A stretch of 50,660 nucleotides of DNA, from NCBI GenBank assembly GCA_013115125.1, contig JABANN010000223.1, forward strand, positions 1 through 50,660, read 5' to 3'. Of this stretch, positions 6,927 through 25,746 are shown piece by piece (the stretch's first letter is position 1; each line of letters starts with the position of its first letter). The notes under the pieces were generated by a model. The model was not told where the DNA came from. It was given only the letters and a program-made list of their open reading frames with translations, and searched no databases. This stretch comes from Perkinsus olseni. Taxonomy: Eukaryota. The translations under genes were made by a program, and so were the position numbers.

Positions 6927-9900
6927 ATGGCAGCAACAGCGATGATAAAAACGACAACGACAGCATCAGACTCGTCATCAAGCGGATACCATTACGATAG
7001 ACAACAGTTACTTAGGTATGACCTAAAATACGAAAGTCAAGGATCAACCTTGGTTGCTTCAGGATGTACCCAGGGCGTCCCGGGCCTGACATCCCCAATC
7101 CTATAGGAATCAGAGTGCATCGATTCCCTCCACCTACAGCGAAGCAGCGGCCGCAGCAACAGCAGCAGCAGCAGTCTGGTGAGGACTTCAATGCTGGGGA
7201 CCTTGGGGGTAATGCTACCACCGCGACTATAACCGTCACCGCGCCATAGCACTGTAAATAATGATGATCAGGTCGAGGACCCCATTCAGGAGCTAAGGGA
7301 AGAGGAAAAGGGACTGGTGGTAAGGGTGGAGGAGCTGTGGGGTTCGACTCGGCTGCTGGGGGAAAGGGGCTTGGTAAAGGCAAGGGAAGGGAACACGTTG
7401 AAGGTGAGGGTTGCTGTCGTCACCCAGCATCCCAGCATCGTCCTTCCCTTCGCCACCACCATTCTTACAAAGATACTGCTGCTGCTGCTGTAGATACGGC
7501 CGGTGGGAGCTCCCCTAGGGCATCAGACCAAGATGATGGTTGGCAAGTGGTCAAGCCAAAGCAAGGGAATAGGGACTGGGGGGCCCTCAGAGGGGGACGG
7601 ACGGCTGCTGCTGCTGCAAGTGAGCTCACTGGGCCCTCATCAGCTACAGGCCGATCGTTGCACTCAGACGAAGAGGAGGGCAAGGCACTACCACCGTGGC
7701 GGAGGGGTGCTGCTGCTACTCACCATCAAGGAGCCAGTGGTAGTAGGAGAGGTGATAGTAGTATTGGCGTAGGCTCTGATGGTGACAGGCGTCGCCTAGC
7801 AGATACATCTCCTGTACACTCCCATGGTCCCGAGTATCATCACCGTGTTGATGCTGCCGCTGCGGCTGGTGATCTTGGCCATCAGCACCAGCATGGACCA
7901 TCCAAAGCCCCAACCATCACTCCTTCTAAGAAGTAGTTGATAGTGTACTGAAGGGTGACGCTTACTTCACTCGATCAGGGTGCCGCCGAAAGAGGAGAAT
8001 GAGCATCTTAAGGACCCCACCAAGCCTACTTCCGGATTAACCCCACCTACCCCTGCCGCCGCTGTGGACCCTTTCACGATGGCCCTCTTGAGAGGGGCTT
8101 CTCCAGAACCCCCTACCAACAAGGACTCATCAGCAGGCCCGTTCGGTCCTACGGTAGTAATAGCACTCGAGGCACTGGATGTCGTACTGTGGCTGCAGGT
8201 ACCGCAAACTTCAGCCGCAGCTTCTATGGTGAAGAGTACTCCTGCTGCTGCTGCTGAGCCTTCCTCCAGTCTGTTCGGCGACGCCCCCGGCTCTGATAGC
8301 CTCTTCGGCCCTCCATTAGACCATGACGGTGGACCAGCCTTCACGGAGGTAGTAGTTGGGTATCACCTCACCGTACGCATCATTGCCTTCGACATCCTTC
8401 AGGGCCCAGCGTCATCATCCGGCAGCCGCTTTGCTCGGCTCTTCGAGACGCTGCACGCTGATGAACCCAAGACGACCCCTCCGGCCACTACCGCTGGCGT
8501 CCAATCATCATCATTCCCTTCTGCCATCCCGGGACCCTTCTCTACCACTTCGGCTGCGTCCCCATTCGCCCCAGTGCCGGGCAGTGGCTCCAGCTCCCTT
8601 TGCGGGGGGCTGCCCTCCGCCGCCCCTGCCGCTGCACAGGCGCCCAGCAGTATCTTCGGGGCTCCACCTGTCGTCCCGACTGGACCAGATCGCCAATCGT
8701 CCGCCCCCAAGGTTCCGACGGCCTCATCTGTACGCGACACATGACACCTGCCCTGCTCACTGGGCACTCTTTCGTTAGGCTCAGCCAGCGCCAGCGAGTG
8801 CCACTCAAGCGCAACTTCAACACGCCCTGCTACAGCAGTTGAGGGCCGCCCCTCCCGCTACTACGGCCAAGGTCCAACAGATCTTGGAGAGGGCCTCGAG
8901 TAATGCCTCCTCACAAGGTGGCGGAGGTGTACCAGCCCTACTACATCAACTGCAGGCACAGGCTCAGCAGAAGAGGGAGCAGGCCGAGCAACAGGTAGTG
9001 GGGACAAGTCGGCGGAGGTGGGTGTGGATAGCGGTAGTCTTCAGGCGAGGGCAATGGCTGCGGCAGCGTCACAGCAACAGCAGCAGCAGGCCGCTTTGGT
9101 CAGACTACAGCAGATGCAGGTCCAACAGCAGATGAAAAAGTTGTTACAGGAGCAGCAGCAAGAGGCTAGACCGGTACTATCGCGAGCGCCCTAGCATCTG
9201 GACCAGCCAGTCTATTCACCAGCAGGCCCAGTACGGAGGCCCTTCAAGTACCGTTAGCGGTATGTCCGCCTTGAACAGGCTCATTAGTGCCGGCAGTAGT
9301 AGTAGTCATCATGGGGCTCCCCCTACTGGAGTTCACACTCCTACCAGTGGATCCGCTCCTGTCGGCACCCCCTCCCCCGGCCTTGATGTCAATGCCCTCT
9401 TCTGGACATATCTGGATCCCCATGGTCATAAGCAGGGACCCTTCTCTAATGCTCAAATGAAGAGTAATATTTGCCACATCGGTCATTGCCGCTGTTCTGT
9501 ATCATCCTGTCATCAGCTTGGCACGCTGCCAACTACTTCGACGCGGATCTTCCGTTGGCCTTTTCCACCTCGAGCGCTCCCACTCCCGGTAGCCGATTCG
9601 CCCCTTTAAACAGGATCTTCCCACCAGGGAGCAGTCCATTCATCGTAATACCACAACAACCGCAACTCTTCCCTACTCTGTGCTATCATCAGGATGCCCC
9701 ACGTCCAGTGGGAGTGGCGGCGGCTCCTCCGCGACCCTCGTCCAGCAGCGCCAGCCTAGGAGCTACCTCCAGTACATCTCCCGCCCAGATCCGGGCCCCG
9801 AGGGTTGATATCGAGAAGCAGGGATCTAGCATGTCTATCGCCTCAAGTGTCCATTCTATCGGAAGAACAGCAGGGGCAGCTGGAGTACCCGTCCCTCCCC

Positions 9901-10848
9901 CTCCCCCGCCTGTCCAACCCCCAGTTCAACCTCCCAATGCTCGGAGGCCCTATGAGGGTGCTGCGGGTAGGAGTGGAAAGCCAACCCGACATGTAATACG
10001 GCGTAGTTGCATCGTTCCTGTCTCCATCGACTTACCTTCAGCAACAGCAGCAGCAGCAGCCGCCAATGGTTCCCTCTACTTCGCCCCCGGCCAATGGCCG
10101 CCGATCGATCTCTCCCGAAGCCGCTGGCTCCCATAGTGACAGAAGCCGCGGCAGAGACTCGGCATCAGAGTCGTTGAGGGGCCTGCTGGGCATCAACGCG
10201 TCCCAGTCGCCACAAAGCGCCTCTGAAAAGGCTCACACCGGATTCTCAGGAAGCAGGCCCTCGGGGGACGACAGAGTGAGGGGGTTGGGGAAGCCAGCGA
10301 AGACACTCAGGTGGTGCTCTTCTGTCAGTCATCCGTCGAGGCCGAACAGCAGCAGCACAACAGGCAAGGCAGTGGCAGTAGTCGTGGTGGTGGACGACGC
10401 GTCAGTCCGGAAGCTGCGTCTTCCGGTGACCGTCCGAGGACAGTGTACCCTAGGAGACCCGGCGATGAGAAGGATAAGCCGAAGACTGTGGTAGGAGGGG
10501 GTCTGTGAGGGAGGGTATGATAGGGATTTTATATGGTATGGTGATCAGGTTGCTGGTAAGGACGTCGCTGACCCCTCCTCGCTGCACAAGGGATGGCTGT
10601 GGTCGCCGAGTGACGAAGCCGCTATGAGAAGGAAGGAGGCGGGCGGCGGTGCAGTCGCCGCGCCTGTTCCGAAGAAGATGTCCTTGAAGGAGATAATGGC
10701 TAATGAGAATGACGCTAATAACATCAAGGCATTGATGACCGGCCACAACCCTGCCCAGCCGCATAAGATGAAGATTCCTGCTGCTAAGAAGAAGAGTCAG
10801 AAGCAACTTAAGAAGGAGGCTGCGGCGAAGAATGCTGGTTCGAGCTAG
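6927..10848 (+). CDS. GYF-domain protein, GIGYF-like (multi-exon)
   Basis: Exon 1 (ATG 6927, intron 7016-7062) gives YHYDRQQLLRM, a YxYxxxxL-phi eIF4E/4EHP-binding motif. GYF domain WTYLDPHGHKQGPFSNAQM..WHAANYFDADL at ~9404-9560. Q-rich tracts. C-terminal KKMSLKEIM. Confidence 0.8.
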
Positions 10849-11895
10849 TAGCGAGCGAACGACCTCGATGATGTTGATAATCATCGTGATCATCCAATTC
10901 TAAAGGACGACGAGACGAAGACCTCCTCCTCCTCCTCCTCATCATCATCCTCTTACTCCTACTAGTATGTATTGTTGATATTTCTAATAAAGCATATGCT
11001 AATCATCACGGTCATCTCTCGACCTTCGGCCAATGTTGGTGATGGTGTGGTATCAGCGGAGGGAGGGTGGTAGTATCGCATTTTTGCTACTAGGGTTCAT
11101 CATCATCACTGCATCATCCCTAATGGGACAAATGTTGTCGTTGTTGTTGCCTTCTCCTTCAATCATAGGTTGTAGTAGTAGCAGCACCCCCATGTACATC
11201 ATCTTCACCATTATCATTACTACTCATACCATCACTAGCACCACCACTACTATCGTTGTCCCCTGTACACCATCATTCCTGCTGCTACCGATGACGCTGC
11301 TGGTAACTTTGACAGTATAGTCTCAACGTTGTTGCCACTCTGGAATTTCTACTGCTACTCATCTATCACTGCCTTGTGTTACACTAGTGGATCATTTGCC
11401 TCGGGAACCTCGTGTGGTCTACTGATAGCGGTGGTGTCTGCTCCGCTATAGTCAGTGGGCCAGGTCAGGGGTGGCATTAATTCGCTGATCGATCATCCGC
11501 TGAAAGTCAGCTGATAAGCCGATGCACTCGAAGTACTGTCGTGTTCGTGAGGCGATGTTCGCGAAGGTAAAGGTACTTCAGTCTGATTGACTTTTTAACA
11601 CAGCAAACACTGAGGAAGGGAAGATGAGTACTGTCCTCTCCCGCACGAAGCACCAGGTTCTGAGTACCTACCATGGGAGGCAATAATCAACGACTATCCG
11701 ATGCCATCGTATGCTCCAGGGATGCTTGTCAAGCCCAGTTTAGTCGATTGGAACTATTGCGGGTGTTTCAGGAGCGCGTTTGATTACACGCGAGTCAGCG
11801 CCGCGTGAGAGTTTCTGAACCAAGATACTGCAGATGTTAGCGGCCCGCAGGGCCACCAGTGATGAGTTCCAGCAGACTCCGTAATTTCATTGTGC

Positions 11896-12034
11896 TGACA
11901 TTGTTGTTGTCTCTTTGCGCATGCGTATTTTGCGCTTGCGTGCGGAGATGGGGATTGAGTCAGCTAAAGTCTTATACCTCCTCTTCTGATATGTCTGGTG
12001 TTACACAGTCGGCGGGGACAGCGGATGGGCAACA
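11896..12034 (+). repeat. 5' LTR (shared portion)
   Basis: TGACATTGTTG...GGGCAACA, identical to 17833-17971. The true LTR may extend upstream to ~11835 (TGTTAG...). Confidence 0.9.
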
Positions 12035-13601
12035 TAATTCTGGCGACAGCGGCAGGATCGAGAACCCGGTTGACCCACCTATTCCCACGATAGCCGACTT
12101 GAAGGCTGCTCGGAAGTTGGCGCGTTGTAGGCGCACTAAGACGGCCAATCGCCTCCAGAGGGTGAAAGCATTGATTGCCGAATATGAGGGGCCAGTTGAT
12201 GGTGTAGAGTTGGAGGAGGATGAGGAGTACGCCAAGCTCCAGGAGGAGGAAGAGTCTCTGGAACCGCTCTTGATCGAGGCTCAGTTGGCGGCGGCTAATG
12301 CCGAGAGAGCCGTCTCGGATTGGCTTCGGGATGATTTGAGCCAGCGCCTGCCATCCCCGTCCTTGTCGGTGGGGCGTGAATCGCAGGCCTTCGTTACACC
12401 CGATGCGTTCGGGGACTCTCCGGGTCCGGCAGCTCACACCGACGGGAGACAAGCTCGCACCAATGCTTTGGTGACCGAGACTTCCCCGGCGTCTCCACCT
12501 CCCCCTGCTGCGGTTCCGCCTCCAATGGGAGTTTCCTCTGGCGTGACGTCCCTGGGACCGCAACCGTCTGTCAGGAGCCGTGTGTCGTCGTCCAAGGATG
12601 CGATAGGGAAGTTAGTTATACCGCACCTCTTGGATAAGTATGAGGTCTTGTCCCATATAAATATGTTCTGCCTTATCCTCTCGGACAATGGGTACGGCCA
12701 ATATGATGGTGAGAGGTTTGTCCCAGCTGAGCGGGAGACCACCATTGTTGTGCGGCTTCTGGAGACTCTCGACAAGTGTCCGGAAGTCCATGCGTTTGCT
12801 GAAAGCACTGCTCGGTCGTCGCAGTATGGGTGGGACCAGACCATTGATATCCTAAAAAAGCGGTTCGGCTCTAAGATCTCTCTCAGGGGCGAGGCGAATC
12901 GCCGTCTGAAGGCCTTGAGGTTCTTGGGTCCTTCGATGGCTGAAGGATTCAATCAGGAGGTGGTGGTTATTGCCAATTTGTGGCTGTCGGTCTACGGCAA
13001 GGAAGGTGCAGAAGTCCGGCATCTGGTGTCGCGTATTATGGGGAAGTTGCCCTATGAGGTCCGGCAGTTGGTGGTGGCATCGGTCCTGGATAAGTTACCT
13101 GAGAGCTGTGTGCACAGGTGGGATAATCATGTTCAGCTGCACGAGCATGCCAAGCATTTCCAAGAATCACCATCGGTGTGCCTGACCGAGATCATCTCTG
13201 TGGTATGTAAGTCTATGGAGATCACCGAATCCCTCAACCCCATGGAAGCTCAGAGGAGGCGCGATCCGGTGCGGAGGATCGCTGAGAGCGATCCGTCGAG
13301 GATGACCAATACCATGTTCGCCTCCAAGTATCCCGTCGGTGCTGTCTTGTATTTCAGGACTGACCAGAAGGAGGTGACGGATAGTCAGATCAAGGAGCAC
13401 TTCCGCAAGCTCGGGGCAAAGGATTCGATGGTGGTGCATCATTCCCACGGGCACATCTATGGATTGGCGGGATTCCCTACGGCGGCCGAGATGAAGACCA
13501 AGCTGGGCCAGGCGGCTTGTTCCGCTCTGGGGATCTGGGCTAGGCCTTTTTCATCTGCGGCGCGGGGAAACTACCAGAGGGCCTTCGAGAGCCGGCAGTA
13601 A
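11991..13601 (+). CDS. gag: retrotransposon Gag (starts inside the LTR)
   Basis: Long intron-free ORF. N-terminal coiled coil, Pro-rich linker and capsid-like WDQTIDILKKRFG. No CCHC knuckle. An in-frame ATG further upstream at 11862 also exists. Confidence 0.85.
   Translation: MSGVTQSAGTADGQHNSGDSGRIENPVDPPIPTIADLKAARKLARCRRTKTANRLQRVKALIAEYEGPVDGVELEEDEEYAKLQEEEESLEPLLIEAQLAAANAERAVSDWLRDDLSQRLPSPSLSVGRESQAFVTPDAFGDSPGPAAHTDGRQARTNALVTETSPASPPPPAAVPPPMGVSSGVTSLGPQPSVRSRVSSSKDAIGKLVIPHLLDKYEVLSHINMFCLILSDNGYGQYDGERFVPAERETTIVVRLLETLDKCPEVHAFAESTARSSQYGWDQTIDILKKRFGSKISLRGEANRRLKALRFLGPSMAEGFNQEVVVIANLWLSVYGKEGAEVRHLVSRIMGKLPYEVRQLVVASVLDKLPESCVHRWDNHVQLHEHAKHFQESPSVCLTEIISVVCKSMEITESLNPMEAQRRRDPVRRIAESDPSRMTNTMFASKYPVGAVLYFRTDQKEVTDSQIKEHFRKLGAKDSMVVHHSHGHIYGLAGFPTAAEMKTKLGQAACSALGIWARPFSSAARGNYQRAFESRQ
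12041..12058 (+). promoter_or_regulatory. primer binding site, probably tRNA-Ser
   Basis: TGGCGACAGCGGCAGGAT, 6 nt after the LTR. It is the complement of a tRNA 3' end ...ATCCTGCCGCTGTCG-CCA (G discriminator, Ser-like). Confidence 0.85.
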
Positions 13602-13630
13602 GCTCGGAGGCCCCCGTCATCGAGGCCGGC
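13565..13630 (+). promoter_or_regulatory. programmed -1 ribosomal frameshift signal (slippery heptamer + pseudoknot)
   Basis: G GGA AAC at 13565-13571 in the gag frame, a 7-nt spacer, then an 11-bp stem 13579-13589/13603-13613. Loop GCCGGC (13591-13596) can pair with GCCGGC at 13625-13630. The -1 frame is open into pol. Confidence 0.85.
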
Positions 13631-16600
13631 GATGCCACCCTGCACCATTCGTCGTCTTTCCCAACGTCCCTTCCTTCTGCTCCGGGACGATATGATTCTA
13701 CGTCTTGTGAACCGGCGTGCTATACATCGTTATTATGTGACGACTCTATTCAAGTCTCAGACACGACAGATCCGGATGTGGTGCCTGAGATCGTTGTTAA
13801 AGCTCGGTTGGCGGGAATAGTGGTCGACTGTATTATTGATTCTGCATCGGGATTTTCTTACCTATCTTCGTATGACTTACCTAATATCCCTCTGGCCCCC
13901 TTGGAAGTTGTTCGGCCCACGGCGGCCAGGGTTGCTAACGGAGTGGTGGTTCGTATCCACCAGTATATCTCCGGGGAGCTCGAAGTCTCCCACTGTCATA
14001 ATGATCATATTGTATGTAAGTGTATTGTTGAGGTTCGTATCCTCCCTTGTAAGAGAAGTCTGGGAGCACGTGGTCTCCCTGCCGTCCTTGTAGGACGGGA
14101 TTTGATGTCCAAGCTCAGTATACGGGTCGAAGCCCATCGGTGTACTTGTCAAGGTCAACTCGTCTACGATAGTAACGGCGAAGATGTTAATTGTATCACG
14201 TCTCTTCTTGAGTCCGACTTGGTCTGTCGTCTGGTTGAAACCCTACACGGCAGTTCGAGTGGCCCAGTATCCCAACTCTCGGAGTTCGTAGAGCTCGCGG
14301 TCTCCGATGTGCAGAAGGGAACTGCCTTGAAGTATTGTGAGGCTCTCGGAGAGCGCCTTCCCTTTCAGGGAGATCAGCGCGGTTACTGTGCCGCGTTGCT
14401 GCCTTTCTGCCCTGATGTGGAAAAGAAATTCCCTAGCTATCAGCAGTATTTCTGGGAGATATGCTGTCCTCGTCCAGGTCCAACTAGGCGCCCTCACTTG
14501 TATGCCGATAAGATGTACCGGCAGCTGACTCTGGAAGGCCGGCAGTTGTATCAGGAACTGGTCAACAAGTACGTGGCTCGAGGACATTGGCAGCCTATCT
14601 CCAAGCCCCATACCGACGCTGCGGCTGAGGTTTTCTTGACGGGGTCCCCTTCGAAGGGGAGACTCGTTTGTGATTTTCGGTGCTTGAACAGCACTTTGCC
14701 TAGAAGCTCTACTTCTGGGATTCTTATACCTGTACTTATGTGCTGCCTGCGCCTCCTCAGGCCGGCGGTACTGGTGGTGGCGGACTGTCACAGTGCGTTC
14801 TATATGTTGAGGCACTGTAACCACGAGGGGTGTTTGAATGAGGTTGAGCTCCACACCGGCGACGGTAGGTATTATTCCTCCAAATGCGTATGTTTCGGGG
14901 TCTTGCATGGCCCCGAGTCATTGGAGTGTAGCTTGGGTCGGCAGATAGAGAAGGTGCTGGAAGAACCCCCTGAGACTGTACAGGCCGGTGGCATTGCTAA
15001 GTTTGTTGATGATCTCACCCTTGCCTTCAGCGCTGCTGATGCAGCTAGGTGCCCCGCTGTTGTCGCTACCATCATCTACTTCCTCGGGTTGTGTGGCTTC
15101 CTCTGTTCTTTGAAGAAGTTCGCGGTCATCGTCCAGGCGGCCTGGACCAGGCCGCGGTGGCTGATCTTCTGGGGGCCTTGTCTGAGTTTGTCCTCCCCGA
15201 GGGGTCGATGCTGGGCGTGCGGGTCACTTTTGATGATGACTACTTATGCTTCCGTTGTGATCAGGCTGATCGTCTTAAGGAGGCCCAAGCCATTCTCGAG
15301 GATTCAAGTTGGAGTAAGTCACAAGTGTATGCGGCCTGTGGCGCGGTCGGGTATGATCCGCTCGCCTTGCACGGTGAGCTGAAGCCACTCTGCGACGCCA
15401 CTCGCCGCTTGTTTGGAGCGTGCTTTACGAAGGCCAGCTGGTCTCAGCGGTTGCAGAAGGCTGACTTCAACGAGGCACAATGGCGATGTTGGAATGAGTT
15501 GCAACATCACTTGTCTACGGCCATAAAAGGTTTACTGACTCAGCCGTGTGAGCACAAGATCCGGTTGTCGCAGGAGCCCTTGAGGCTCATTCTACAGACG
15601 GATGCGTCGCTGTCAGGTGGCGGAGTCTTCATCACTGCCAGGTCACTCGATGGTTCGACGGTCTCTTTGATACGGGATGCCTTTGCTTGGAGTCCGCTCC
15701 AGCAGAGGTACCACTCTAACAGGAGGGAGATGTTAGCTCTTCATAGGGGTATCTGTTGGCTGAACCGAGTGTTGGCCGAGTTCAAGTCCATGTCATTCAA
15801 GTCGTCATCATTCCCTCTGTTGCCGCCGGTGATATAGTCTGATAACAAGGCGACGGTGCGCCTCTGCCTGTCTTCAGCCTCTACACTCAAGATCACTGCT
15901 GTCGAGAGAAATGCCTTGTTCCGTATTGTTTCGGCCATAGGCAGTGAGTTGGCTGAGATTCGAGCACTCTGCGGCTGCTATGAGATTGAGCATGTGGCAG
16001 GACAGGCGAACCATGAAGCTGACCGGTTGAGCCGGGTTTTGAGTGTACCAGTCCGTGGTGAGTCTGCCAAGCCGCTTTTCCAGCTCCTGAATGAGGCCGT
16101 CGGTGGTAACGAAGTGCCGGTCATGGACGACGTCTTCGAACTTGCCGAATTCTTGCATTCTCGGGTCAACCATGATCTGTGCTTCGCCTTCTGTGGAGAA
16201 GGATGCCCACGGCCGACTGATGACGAACTCTACGTCCAGGCCCCGTGTCATCCCGATGAAGATTCGCTGAGGCGGGTAGCAGAGATCTATCCGGCTTTCA
16301 ATGTCCTCGAAGCTGTTGAGTCGTTCGTCGATAGGTGTTGTGCGGTGGTTTTTAGGGCCTGAGAGCCCTGGTCAGTCCCCAAGGGACCGTGCCCGGTGCC
16401 GCCTCACCCTACGCCTCAGGAGTTTATGCTGGGGAATGGGACAGGCTTGCCGGTTAGTGCGGGTTACTAAGTGGTGTCTGAGGGCCTGGTTCACTGCAGC
16501 CTGCACTACTGAAGGTCGCGGAAATCGTTGTCGGTCTCGTCATTTCGAGCCGTTCCCACAGCACTGGGAAAGACAGGACCTGGTGGACTGGCTCCGGGTC

Positions 16601-17926
16601 GACCAACAGAGTAACCCCAGACTACCATGCAGAGTTGTGGACCTCGGCGAGTCGGGTGATGTTGTTGCAGTAGGATCTGGTCCATATTACAGGATCGACG
16701 GCGTTGTCTACCTGCGATCTACAAAGGCGAACGGTGTGGTATGCTTTAGAGCCGTGGTGGACGGCGTACTGAGAGACATGATACTTCGTGATCTCCATCG
16801 TGCTAACCGTCATGGGAGTGTTGAAACTATGTGTGACAAGTTCACCAACGCCTTCCATGCGTCCGGGATACGCCGCGCGGCCTCGGCTATCAAGAAGCAT
16901 TGCGCCATCTGTGCTCGCCTGAATGCTAGGTTCGCTAAGGGTTGGCTGGTTCCGTGCGGAGGACCTTATCATGATATCAGGGCATTGTTGTCGATGACAC
17001 CTTATACTGTGGTCGGCATTGACTTTGTGATCATCGCCCCATCTGTTAAGGTGATGATCGGTGCTTGTATTGCTACTCGGCATGTGACTCTGTTGTACGC
17101 GGCCAAGGAGGACTCCAACACCGCGGTGTCTCTGATCCACGAGCTGTCCCTTTTGAGGGGTTTGCCCGTGGAAGTGTTCTCCGACCGGGCGTCCTACTTT
17201 CGATCAGTCACCTTTCAGAGTGGCATGGAGCGGATGGGGATAAAAGTTTCTTACCTGGCTTCTCATAGCCCGTTCGAGGGCTCGGTGTACGAGCGAAGGA
17301 ACAGGGAGCTTAAGCGGGTGCTCCGTTACTTGTTGGAGCTTCCGTCGGTCAAGAAGTTGCTGAGACATTTCGACCCTGACTCGGTGGAGCACGTCCGTCG
17401 TCTTCGGTTGGTGTTGTTGGAGATTGAGTTGATGGTCAACCAACGTCCTCTCGGATTGGTGGATACAGGCGCCGAAGTGCGGACTATCTCTCCTGATAGC
17501 CTTTGTTACGGCTACGCCAGGAGAACCGACCAGGTGGCCGATCCGGGGATAGCGATCTTCGCATCCCCTACTGATGAACCAGAAGATGATGGTGATGTTG
17601 ACGGTATCCTAGGCTCGGTGTCGCCCTATACGAGCCGCCCGGGTGTACGTCCCAGTCCGATCGCAGACGCTGCTCCCAAGCGACTGTCGGCGATCCGCAA
17701 CAGTTTCCTTTCTTTTCATTTTCAGTACTTGAAAGATCGATCTGATAAGGCCATGGCGCGTGGTGCTCCTCAGTCGTCAGTGATGCCACTTTTTGGCAAG
17801 GACGATCTGGTATTTGTCCGCGCTGGTAAATCTGACATTGTTGTTGTCTCTTTGCGCATGCGTATTTTGCGCTTGCGTGCGGAGATGGGGATTGAGTCAG
17901 CTAAAGTCTTATACCTCCTCTTCTGA
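13565..17926 (+). pseudogene. pol: retrotransposon Pol (protease, RT, RNase H, integrase) with two frameshifts and one stop
   Basis: PR IIDSASGFSYL. RT GRLVCDFRCLN / ADCHSAFY / FVDD. RH QTDAS, REMLAL, HVAGQANHEADRLSR. INT H-H-C-C plus GIDF / SDRASYF / YERRNR. Lesions at ~15130 (-1), TAG 15835-15837 and ~16350 (+1 in a T5 run). Confidence 0.9.
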
Positions 17927-17971
17927 TATGTCTGGTGTTACACAGTCGGCGGGGACAGCGGATGGGCAACA
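17833..17971 (+). repeat. 3' LTR
   Basis: Identical to 11896-12034 and ends in CAACA. Confidence 0.9.
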
Positions 17972-18232
17972 AGATCAACTTGATATTATCAACTTATGCG
18001 TTTTCGAAAGTGCTAACGAGGTTTTAAGACGCCCTAACGAGGGAGCGGGCTTCTCGAGTAGCCCTCTTGTAACCTACCGCGAGGAGAGGCTGTTTGGGGG
18101 GTCTTCCATGACTGGAGCATTGGAATTTTTACGCCAGCGGGAAGCGACGGTTTTGTTCCCCCATGGGGTTCCACTTGACAACTCGATGCATTTGAGTGCA
18201 GAGAAACTACACCAAAACCGAAAACACAAACG

Positions 18233-20725: not shown

Positions 20726-21487
20726 CTAGTAATCAAAGTTCGATTATGGAACCCAAACGGCGGTAATAATCACGCACAGTGCAGAGCGTATCTCTCAGTA
20801 CGAAAATTCTAATGGTTTCCTGCACAGAGCCCCGCCTCTACTCGTACCTTAACTATTTCTAGTCGCCAAAGTTTACGATTCTTACGCAGTACTGGTGGGC
20901 GAGCGCCGAATGAAGAGTAAGATGCGCACTAATGGCGCTCAGTGAACCAACCCTGAGACTCGGCGCAAGAGGAAGGCAGTCGAAGTTGAGGTCTCGAACG
21001 CGTTTTGGCTGACTTCGCTTCGGGGGAGTTCCGCTCTCGAGTTTGAGGAATTTCAATTGAATACTCCCTCAGGATTGCGATCACTTTTGATGTATTGAAA
21101 ACGAATCCCAGAATGTTGTCAAGTGGATTGAGGTTAGCACCGGGAGAAGGGGTCATCATTACCATCTGGGAAAGGGGCAGGAGGGGGCCCAGGGCCTTGC
21201 CCTACAGAGACTACCAGAACGCAAGATTGTTGATAGGCAAGAGGCAACTAAATTTATTATTATCACATGCATTTACTTCCATGTAGTAAGTGCAGCAGAT
21301 AATAACAATAACGTTGCTCAACGGACTGGATGGGGGGCAGTAGGTCATAATTACCATCATCATCACGGGCAGCAGCTAAATAATAACAACAATAGTAGTA
21401 TTATCATTTCGCTACCACTGCGACGAAGGAAGGCTGTCAGCTACATTAGTAGTGGTAACAATAACAGCAGCAGCAACAACGCCACCA

Positions 21488-25746
<4,259 letters not shown>

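Follow-up and report, generated by a model that had tools for sequence, protein, structure and literature searches.

A long terminal repeat (LTR) retroelement lies at 11895–17971 on the + strand of the stretch of Perkinsus olseni DNA analysed here (contig JABANN010000223.1 of assembly GCA_013115125.1, positions 1 to 50,660 of the forward strand; this whole stretch of 50,660 nucleotides is called the window below). Its first open reading frame (ORF) encodes a Gag protein, and the question it raises is what stands in the place of the nucleocapsid (NC). Nucleocapsid function is central to capsid-forming retroelements, and is nearly always provided by CCHC zinc knuckles or by disordered basic tails. 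The CCHC knuckle is typical of LTR-retroelement Gag, but not universal. An earlier reading of the letters alone (the sequence-only reading) had noted that this Gag has no CCHC motif, and had proposed that it ends instead in a domain like an RNA recognition motif (RRM). We find that the domain is predicted with high confidence to have an RRM fold, that it follows a predicted capsid (CA) region and ends just before the putative slippery site for entry into pol, and that the combination of CA and RRM recurs in relatives of the protein. The features that bear most directly on the question are as follows.

11991..13601, + strand: Gag ORF (P0002), 536 aa, with ATG at 11991 and stop codon at 13599–13601
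12594..13256, + strand: capsid-like two-lobed helical region, Gag residues about 202–422, from an AlphaFold2 (AF2) model
13305..13550, + strand: RRM-fold domain, Gag residues 439–520, from the AF2 model, Foldseek and VIA-align
13565..13571, + strand: putative −1 slippery heptamer G_GGA_AAC in the Gag frame, of the canonical form X_XXY_YYZ

Predicted fold of the C-terminal domain of Gag

The domain was modelled with AF2 from an alignment, A1, which consists of the window segment 13305–13571 and the matching stretch of 23 relatives at 9–41% identity to that segment. The relatives align across the whole domain, and the conservation therefore reaches well beyond near-identical copies of the element. 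The model (me8af2c601438) has a pLDDT of 91.8 and a pTM of 0.81, and the five models score between 84.7 and 91.8. The predicted order of helices (H) and strands (E) is H2-6 E14-19 H26-35 E40-45 E51-56 H60-70 E77-81. This is the β-α-β-β-α-β arrangement of an RRM, with an additional helix, α0, preceding β1. The elements map to the DNA as follows, all on the + strand and all from the AF2 model.

13344–13361: β1
13380–13409: α1
13422–13439: β2
13455–13472: β3, RNP1-like
13482–13514: α2
13533–13547: β4, followed by the conserved R-P-F

The peptide on which the sequence-only reading was based (VLYFRTDQKEV...AAEMKTKL) is read in the Gag frame and starts exactly at 13344. The domain ends in the conserved R-P-F motif, and base 13550 is the final base of its Phe codon.

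A Foldseek search with the model against 350,542 PDB chains gave 23 matches at E ≤ 1e-3, with solved RRMs ahead of other folds. The matches listed are RRM proteins, with SFPQ/NONO (1.6e-4), TIAR (TMq 0.73, rmsd 2.3), Pes4 RRM3, TIA-1 RRM2, ALYREF, CBP20 and PABP1 RRM2. VIA-align, which works independently of Foldseek, was run against 48,161 chains. Its best 50 rows have Z between 7.8 and 9.2; each is an RRM-type domain or a chain from a spliceosomal, ribosomal or cap-binding complex, and none names a different fold; the top example is the MEC-8 RRM (Z 9.2, rmsd 1.8, 74 residues). A Z of around 8 is common for best matches in VIA-align, and the evidential weight lies in the uniformity of the row list rather than in the scores. 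The viral structure library BFVD gave RRM proteins of giant viruses as best matches, with no Gag or retroviral protein among the best 50 rows. It is concluded that the domain, as modelled, has an RRM fold, and we regard the assignment as sound. The sequence-only reading had named two outcomes that would speak against its idea, a prediction without the β-α-β-β-α-β fold and a lack of conservation among copies; both were looked for, and neither occurred.

Sequence evidence and the RNP signature

The sequence pattern of the window's own domain does not rise above chance when it is taken alone. The Pfam RRM_1 family (PF00076) matches it with 11.8 bits (E 0.23), under the cut-off of 20.7. A Pfam scan of the 103-aa Gag C-terminus gave nothing at E ≤ 1, and a phmmer search of the C-terminus against PDB sequences gave chance-level rows only, including PDI A6 at E 0.69. 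In the ESM Atlas, Gag 425–536 gave a best score of 0.80, with an RRM cluster fifth at 0.76; all of these lie under the 0.9 line and serve as a lead only. The RRM-like pattern became convincing only because the family alignment and the structure prediction were added to it.

Within the family, RRM_1 is the commonest Pfam family among the A1 members (6/24 at E ≤ 10, best E 0.0073), and further RRM families are matched as well, namely RRM_3 in two members and RRM_Thc1 and RRM_fung in one each, all below their curated cut-offs. When the A1 profile was compared with PDB sequences, the best match was chloroplast ribosomal protein cS22, which contains two RRMs (E 0.0084). RNP1 and helix 2 line up in register with their counterparts in both cS22 RRMs.

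The register of the hidden Markov model (HMM) alignment to cS22 was used to count residues in the RNP columns over the 24 sequences of A1.

RNP1 position 1: basic in 15/24
RNP1 position 3: aromatic in 21/24
RNP1 positions 5 and 6: hydrophobic in 24/24
RNP1 position 8: aromatic in 18/24
RNP2 position 2: aromatic in 12/24
Conserved position in the β2–β3 loop: basic in 16/24
Closing R-P-F, Arg position: R, K or H in 18/24
Closing R-P-F, Phe position: F or Y in 21/24

In the window's protein the RNP1 Tyr is Gag Y490 and the RNP2 Phe is Gag F455, and the RRM segment has a net charge of +6. As judged from these columns, the RNP signature is partial but present.

The domain recurs in a family of relatives

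When 1.84 billion representatives were searched exhaustively with Gag using HMMER, 43 proteins came up at E ≤ 1e-3. Twenty of the relatives were looked up, and the named clusters among them come only from P. olseni, P. marinus and P. chesapeaki, all annotated as hypothetical proteins; the remaining relatives are metagenome proteins. The Gag protein itself is identical (100%) to a P. olseni hypothetical protein. A second copy is present in another P. olseni assembly at 94–98% identity, where the gene model also takes in a different gene upstream. In most of the distant relatives, the tail after the conserved central region has a common pattern: W..xF, V.Y..G, a helix, G-K-P-Y-x-L-v-G-F, a second helix and l.v-R-P-F.

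Of the 43 representatives, 29 are matched at E < 1e-3 by an HMM made from A1; 24 of these went into the model and match by construction, and five come from outside it. Among the other 14, seven gene models end right after CA; the remaining seven are considered below. The design of a CA followed by an RRM thus recurs across a diverse family that covers three Perkinsus species and metagenome proteins. This is a Perkinsus retroelement family that is annotated only as hypothetical proteins and escapes standard domain scans.

The domain lies in the nucleocapsid position of Gag

The region upstream of the RRM was modelled with AF2 using Gag residues 190–445 and 35 relatives (alignment A2). The model (m76e5c2406e8c) is two-lobed and helical, with a pLDDT of 89.9. 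When it was compared with 48,161 PDB chains using VIA-align, the best 24 rows were all retroviral, retrotransposon or domesticated capsids. They include the Copia capsid (Z 8.9 over 171 residues), the C-terminal domain (CTD) of PEG10 CA (8.8), the Ty1-derived Drt2 (8.0) and dArc1 (7.8), and also MLV, RSV, MOAP1, Arc, PNMA2, the N-terminal domain of Ty3 and HERV-K. Foldseek gave nothing at E ≤ 1e-3 with this model, and only low-probability rows for Arc, PNMA2, Copia, Ty3 and HIV capsids, and a Pfam scan of Gag found no Gag family and nothing at E ≤ 1. Since the best structural neighbours of the model are all capsids, the protein is, on this prediction, a capsid-forming Gag with the RRM in its nucleocapsid slot. 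The label Gag given in the sequence-only reading is thereby upheld.

The absence of the zinc knuckle was likewise borne out. A regex search for C-x2-C-x3-5-H-x3-5-C found no match in Gag or in any of its stored relatives (61/61), and a search of the three forward frames of the element gave a single match, which is interrupted by stop codons.

The N-terminal part of Gag (residues 1–190, 11991–12560) starts with a basic stretch, K-A-A-R-K-L-A-R-C-R-R-T-K-T, followed by a long acidic segment of helical appearance. The net charge of residues 1–60 is +6, and an R/K-rich stretch is retained there in relatives. A comparison of the family profile with PDB sequences gave weak coiled-coil rows only, to keratin and myosin (E 0.4–0.75). 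A possible coiled coil ahead of CA and RRM recalls the layout of ORF1p, the first-ORF protein of long interspersed nuclear elements (LINEs).

The RRM is followed directly by a slippery site

The sequence-only reading had placed the segment just before the frameshift, and this position is correct. The pol frame opens at 13544, in −1 relative to Gag, giving a gag/pol overlap of 58 nt. Between the end of the RRM (13550) and the start of the heptamer (13565) lie 14 nt, and therefore the domain would belong to both Gag and Gag-Pol. One further element of the site was considered.

13579..13613, + strand: 11-bp stem-loop, 7 nt 3′ of the heptamer, a possible frameshift stimulator

The folding energy of this stem-loop is not better than that of shuffled sequences (z −0.14; 82/200 shuffles fold at least as well).

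The protein ends of the relatives point to the same arrangement. K-N and G-N are the coding products of A_AAA_AAC and G_GGA_AAC, and one or other of these dipeptides occurs within the last 20 residues in 18/22 of the A1 members of Gag length, compared to about 10% expected from the dipeptide background. Scans of metagenome loci with P0013 and P0009 found no relative. Together, the protein ends suggest that the order RRM, slippery site, pol is common to the family.

Proposed function and its alternatives

We propose that the RRM is the nucleic-acid-binding module of Gag and would contact the RNA of the element. The contacts would be made by the face of the β-sheet, by the β2–β3 loop, which is basic, and by the conserved closing R-P-F. 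In this role the RRM would take over the jobs of the nucleocapsid, namely loading the genomic RNA into the particle and assisting primer annealing and strand transfer, and the solution would be convergent with the RRM of LINE-1 ORF1p. The evidence behind this proposal is the predicted fold, the matches to RRM families, the RNP columns and net charge given above, and the position of the domain, with CA upstream, no CCHC motif, a slippery site directly downstream and K-N or G-N ends in relatives. We consider it probable that the domain binds element RNA and supplies nucleocapsid functions.

A number of observations weigh against this proposal. At the level of sequence, the window's domain scores under the RRM_1 cut-off, as noted above, and no A1 member attains the RRM_1 gathering score. 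The signature is not the textbook RNP signature: 12/24 members have Pro in place of Gly at RNP1 position 2, RNP1 position 5 is aromatic in just 5/24, and the RNP2 aromatic is present in only half of the members. The rows of A1 were our own choice, and six tails that align less cleanly were left out (P0012, P0018, P0026, P0027, P0035 and P0040). The seven remaining relatives without an HMM match have a long tail after CA, with no significant domain match in it. At the level of function, many RRM folds bind proteins rather than RNA, and the conserved N-terminal helix could cover the sheet. Finally, this copy may not make particles itself, because its pol is broken by two frame changes and a TAG codon.

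The alternative that best survives is that the RRM fold is genuine but acts as a protein–protein module, in Gag–Gag assembly, Gag–Pol docking or recruitment of a host factor, like UHM-type and other pseudo-RRMs. The task of binding RNA would then fall to another site, such as the basic N-terminal stretch of Gag, whose charge and retention in relatives fit such a role. The incomplete RNP signature is also compatible with it, as is the extra N-terminal helix, which has a Trp or Phe in 22/24 members and could occupy the sheet. The best Foldseek matches are the DBHS proteins SFPQ/NONO, in which RRM2 serves dimerization. Against this, the RNP1 aromatic and its flanking basic residues are the most conserved positions of exposed type, the domain stands where a nucleocapsid would be, and no further motif for binding nucleic acids came to light. 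We think a protein module unlikely, but it is the main rival of the RNA-binding proposal.

It is much less probable that the domain is a generic ferredoxin-like fold outside the RRM superfamily, or an over-confident prediction. Such a view could appeal to the failure of every sequence search to attain a curated threshold, to VIA-align Z values of 8–9 that lie within the range common for best matches, and to an alignment that is shallow at 24 rows. However, two independent aligners rank RRMs alone on top, although the PDB holds many other ferredoxin-like folds, the best PDB sequence match of the profile is an RRM protein whose RNP1 lines up in register, and every one of the five AF2 models scores between 84.7 and 91.8. 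That the domain was picked up once from host sequence, or is a decaying relic of this copy only, irrelevant to the biology of the element, is scarcely credible despite the broken pol of this copy, given that it is found in 23 aligned relatives of low identity, in every case between CA and the K-N/G-N end, and in the five matching representatives outside the model.

The RNA-binding proposal can be extended to a broader picture, of a deep and undescribed perkinsid LTR lineage with a reverse transcriptase (RT) invisible to Pfam, in which a folded RRM would replace the zinc-knuckle nucleocapsid, would select and chaperone the genomic RNA within a retrovirus-like capsid, and would have converged on the solution of LINE-1 ORF1p. 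For this combined picture the chances appear evenly balanced. If it is true, the folded RRM would be a third nucleocapsid solution, besides CCHC knuckles and disordered basic tails, and would link the logic of LTR elements to that of LINE ORF1p. It would also provide a compact and structurally tractable model for the choice of RNA by a capsid protein, which is of relevance to engineered Gag-based RNA delivery, for example with PNMA2 or PEG10.

Comparison with known systems

In the parts of the literature accessible to us, with Repbase and subscription journals outside the scope, no description was found of a C-terminal RRM in an LTR Gag, nor of these Perkinsus elements. An RRM in the nucleocapsid slot of an LTR Gag is a rare design. 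The nearest published precedent found is the PNMA-type Gag. The vertebrate Metaviridae ancestral to the PNMA genes carry an N-terminal RRM-like domain of ~100 residues, in a Gag of the form RBD-CA-NC (Henriques et al., Mol Biol Evol 2024, PMC11011659). The set comprises Gypsy-30_Ami and relatives together with human PNMA1-8 and CCDC8, and the domain is described as a putative RNA-binding domain (PMC11011659). The two cases are alike in having an LTR Gag with an RRM-like domain beside the capsid, found via structure prediction and with a putative function; they differ in that the PNMA-type domain is N-terminal and the zinc-knuckle NC is retained, whereas the Perkinsus Gag has the domain at its C-terminus (CA-RRM), in the NC position, and no knuckle. 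The sequence-only reading had described RRMs as typical of LINE ORF1p rather than of LTR Gag. Because an N-terminal RRM-like domain has been published for vertebrate PNMA-type Metaviridae (PMC11011659), this statement needs amending. The hosts are also different, being a perkinsid protist here and vertebrates there. Pfam scans of the 24 A1 members found no PNMA family.

LINE-1 ORF1p consists of a coiled coil, an RRM and a CTD, and its RRM coats and chaperones its own RNA. It has no capsid domain, and its elements have neither LTRs nor integrase. The Perkinsus element resembles it in having an RRM in its first ORF, for which the same function is proposed, and the N-terminal part of Gag is here helical and acidic. 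It differs in having LTRs, a CA and an integrase. No LINE ORF1p structure was found among the best 50 rows of the Foldseek or VIA-align PDB searches, and for this reason nothing points to common descent with ORF1p.

With Ty3/gypsy-type (Metaviridae) and retroviral elements the Perkinsus element shares a two-lobed CA, a −1 frameshift into protease (PR), RT, RNase H (RH) and integrase (IN), matches to RT_RNaseH_2 and Integrase_H2C2, which are weak here, and TG..CA LTRs. It differs in that the CCHC nucleocapsid of those elements is replaced, in the same place, by an RRM. In addition, the RT lies beyond Pfam at E ≤ 10, and the LTRs are merely 140 bp long and hold the first in-frame ATG. Gag proteins without a zinc knuckle occur in Ty1, Drosophila gypsy and foamy viruses, which achieve NC function without CCHC. 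These have disordered basic or Gly-Arg-rich tails, in contrast to the folded RRM here.

Structure of the element

The element is an LTR retroelement with the gene order of Ty3 and retroviruses, having Gag, PR, RT, RNase H and, last, integrase between its LTRs. The LTRs are a direct repeat of 140 bp with 100% identity (11895–12034 and 17832–17971), which is the sole repeat in the region.

11895..12034, + strand: 5′ LTR, 140 bp, TG...CA ends, with TG at 11896
12041..12056, + strand: putative primer-binding site TGGCGACAGCGGCAGG, 6 nt 3′ of the LTR
17832..17971, + strand: 3′ LTR, identical partner of the 5′ LTR

The LTR flanks (11880–11900 and 17965–17985) show no target-site duplication, since the bases before 11895/11896 and after 17971 differ. 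The candidate primer-binding site begins with TGG, as needed for pairing with the 3′ CCA end of a tRNA. Its complement occurs without mismatch at this place only, and no tRNA gene that could be the source of the primer was found in the window.

The first in-frame ATG of Gag sits within the 5′ LTR, and the true start may therefore lie elsewhere. The ORF runs straight across the putative primer-binding site TGGCGACAGCGG, where it encodes S-G-D-S-G (11991–12056). Several distant relatives start with M-A-T-P or M-V-T-A, which would be encoded by ATGGCGAC or ATGGTGAC, and in these relatives the start codon may overlap a primer-binding site that begins with TGG.

Pol region and state of the copy

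The pol region was divided as follows.

13544..15382, + strand: first part of the pol ORF, −1 frame, protease and divergent RT
13796–14014, + strand: protease, weak Pfam aspartyl protease match
about 14243–15139, + strand: RT, with motifs R-L-V-C-D-F-R-C-L-N and F-V-D-D seen by eye
15199..15834, + strand: RNase H region, shifted by another −1 frame from RT; Pfam RT_RNaseH_2 at E 2e-4, short of the cut-off
15835..15837, + strand: in-frame TAG inside the RNase H homology; the alignment to P0020 continues through it
16679..17830, + strand: integrase, in another frame, within the ORF 16280–17926
16763–16927, + strand: integrase H2C2 zinc-binding region, Pfam Integrase_H2C2 25.1 bits against a cut-off of 25.5
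17012–17272, + strand: integrase catalytic core, Pfam rve E 1e-3

The weak Pfam matches follow one another along the DNA as aspartyl protease, RT_RNaseH_2, Integrase_H2C2 and rve, and the pol ORFs carry a protease-like D-S-A-S-G stretch. For the RT, Pfam gives nothing even at E ≤ 10 and the PDB nothing at E ≤ 1; a word search found a single relative, a P. chesapeaki polyprotein that is 46% identical. The element may represent a deep branch of LTR elements.

Relative to a P. chesapeaki and a P. olseni polyprotein, homology to pol shifts frame between 15136 and 15199, as seen by tblastn with P0020 and P0049, and a second frame change lies within 16280–16362. Inspection of the first of these breaks (15136–15199) by eye revealed no canonical slippery heptamer. 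The interruptions coexist with identical LTRs. They may be mutations of a dead copy, or may be something that is decoded.

The possibility that the breaks are errors of assembly was considered and rejected. Contigs of four public runs have the same letters as the window with no indel at the breaks in pol, and because they agree in this the breaks are not assembly errors. There is one single-base difference from the window, at 12918 in one run. One of the four runs is declared as a metatranscriptome; for the other three it is uncertain what type of library was sequenced. Run X19 has no contig over 13488–13698 and 14121–14542, and X1, X8 and X19 do not cover the flanks in the window.

In runs X1 and X8 the element closes on itself, with 17831 joined to 11895, as a unit of 5937 bases with high word depth. 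This unit corresponds to one LTR plus the internal part, and the contigs stop short of the flanks in the window. Three explanations fit the closed contig, namely an element present in several copies, a transcript with terminal redundancy, or a circle with a single LTR, and contigs cannot distinguish between them. It is not proof of circles, tandems or expression, because identical LTRs or a redundant transcript assemble in this way, and contigs are no evidence that the element is transcribed.

Outside the element, the flanking regions 9468–11320 and 21091–21504 translate to long homopolymer-rich stretches, with runs of Q, A, S, N and P. These are typical of the low-complexity coding or non-coding sequence of the P. 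olseni genome.

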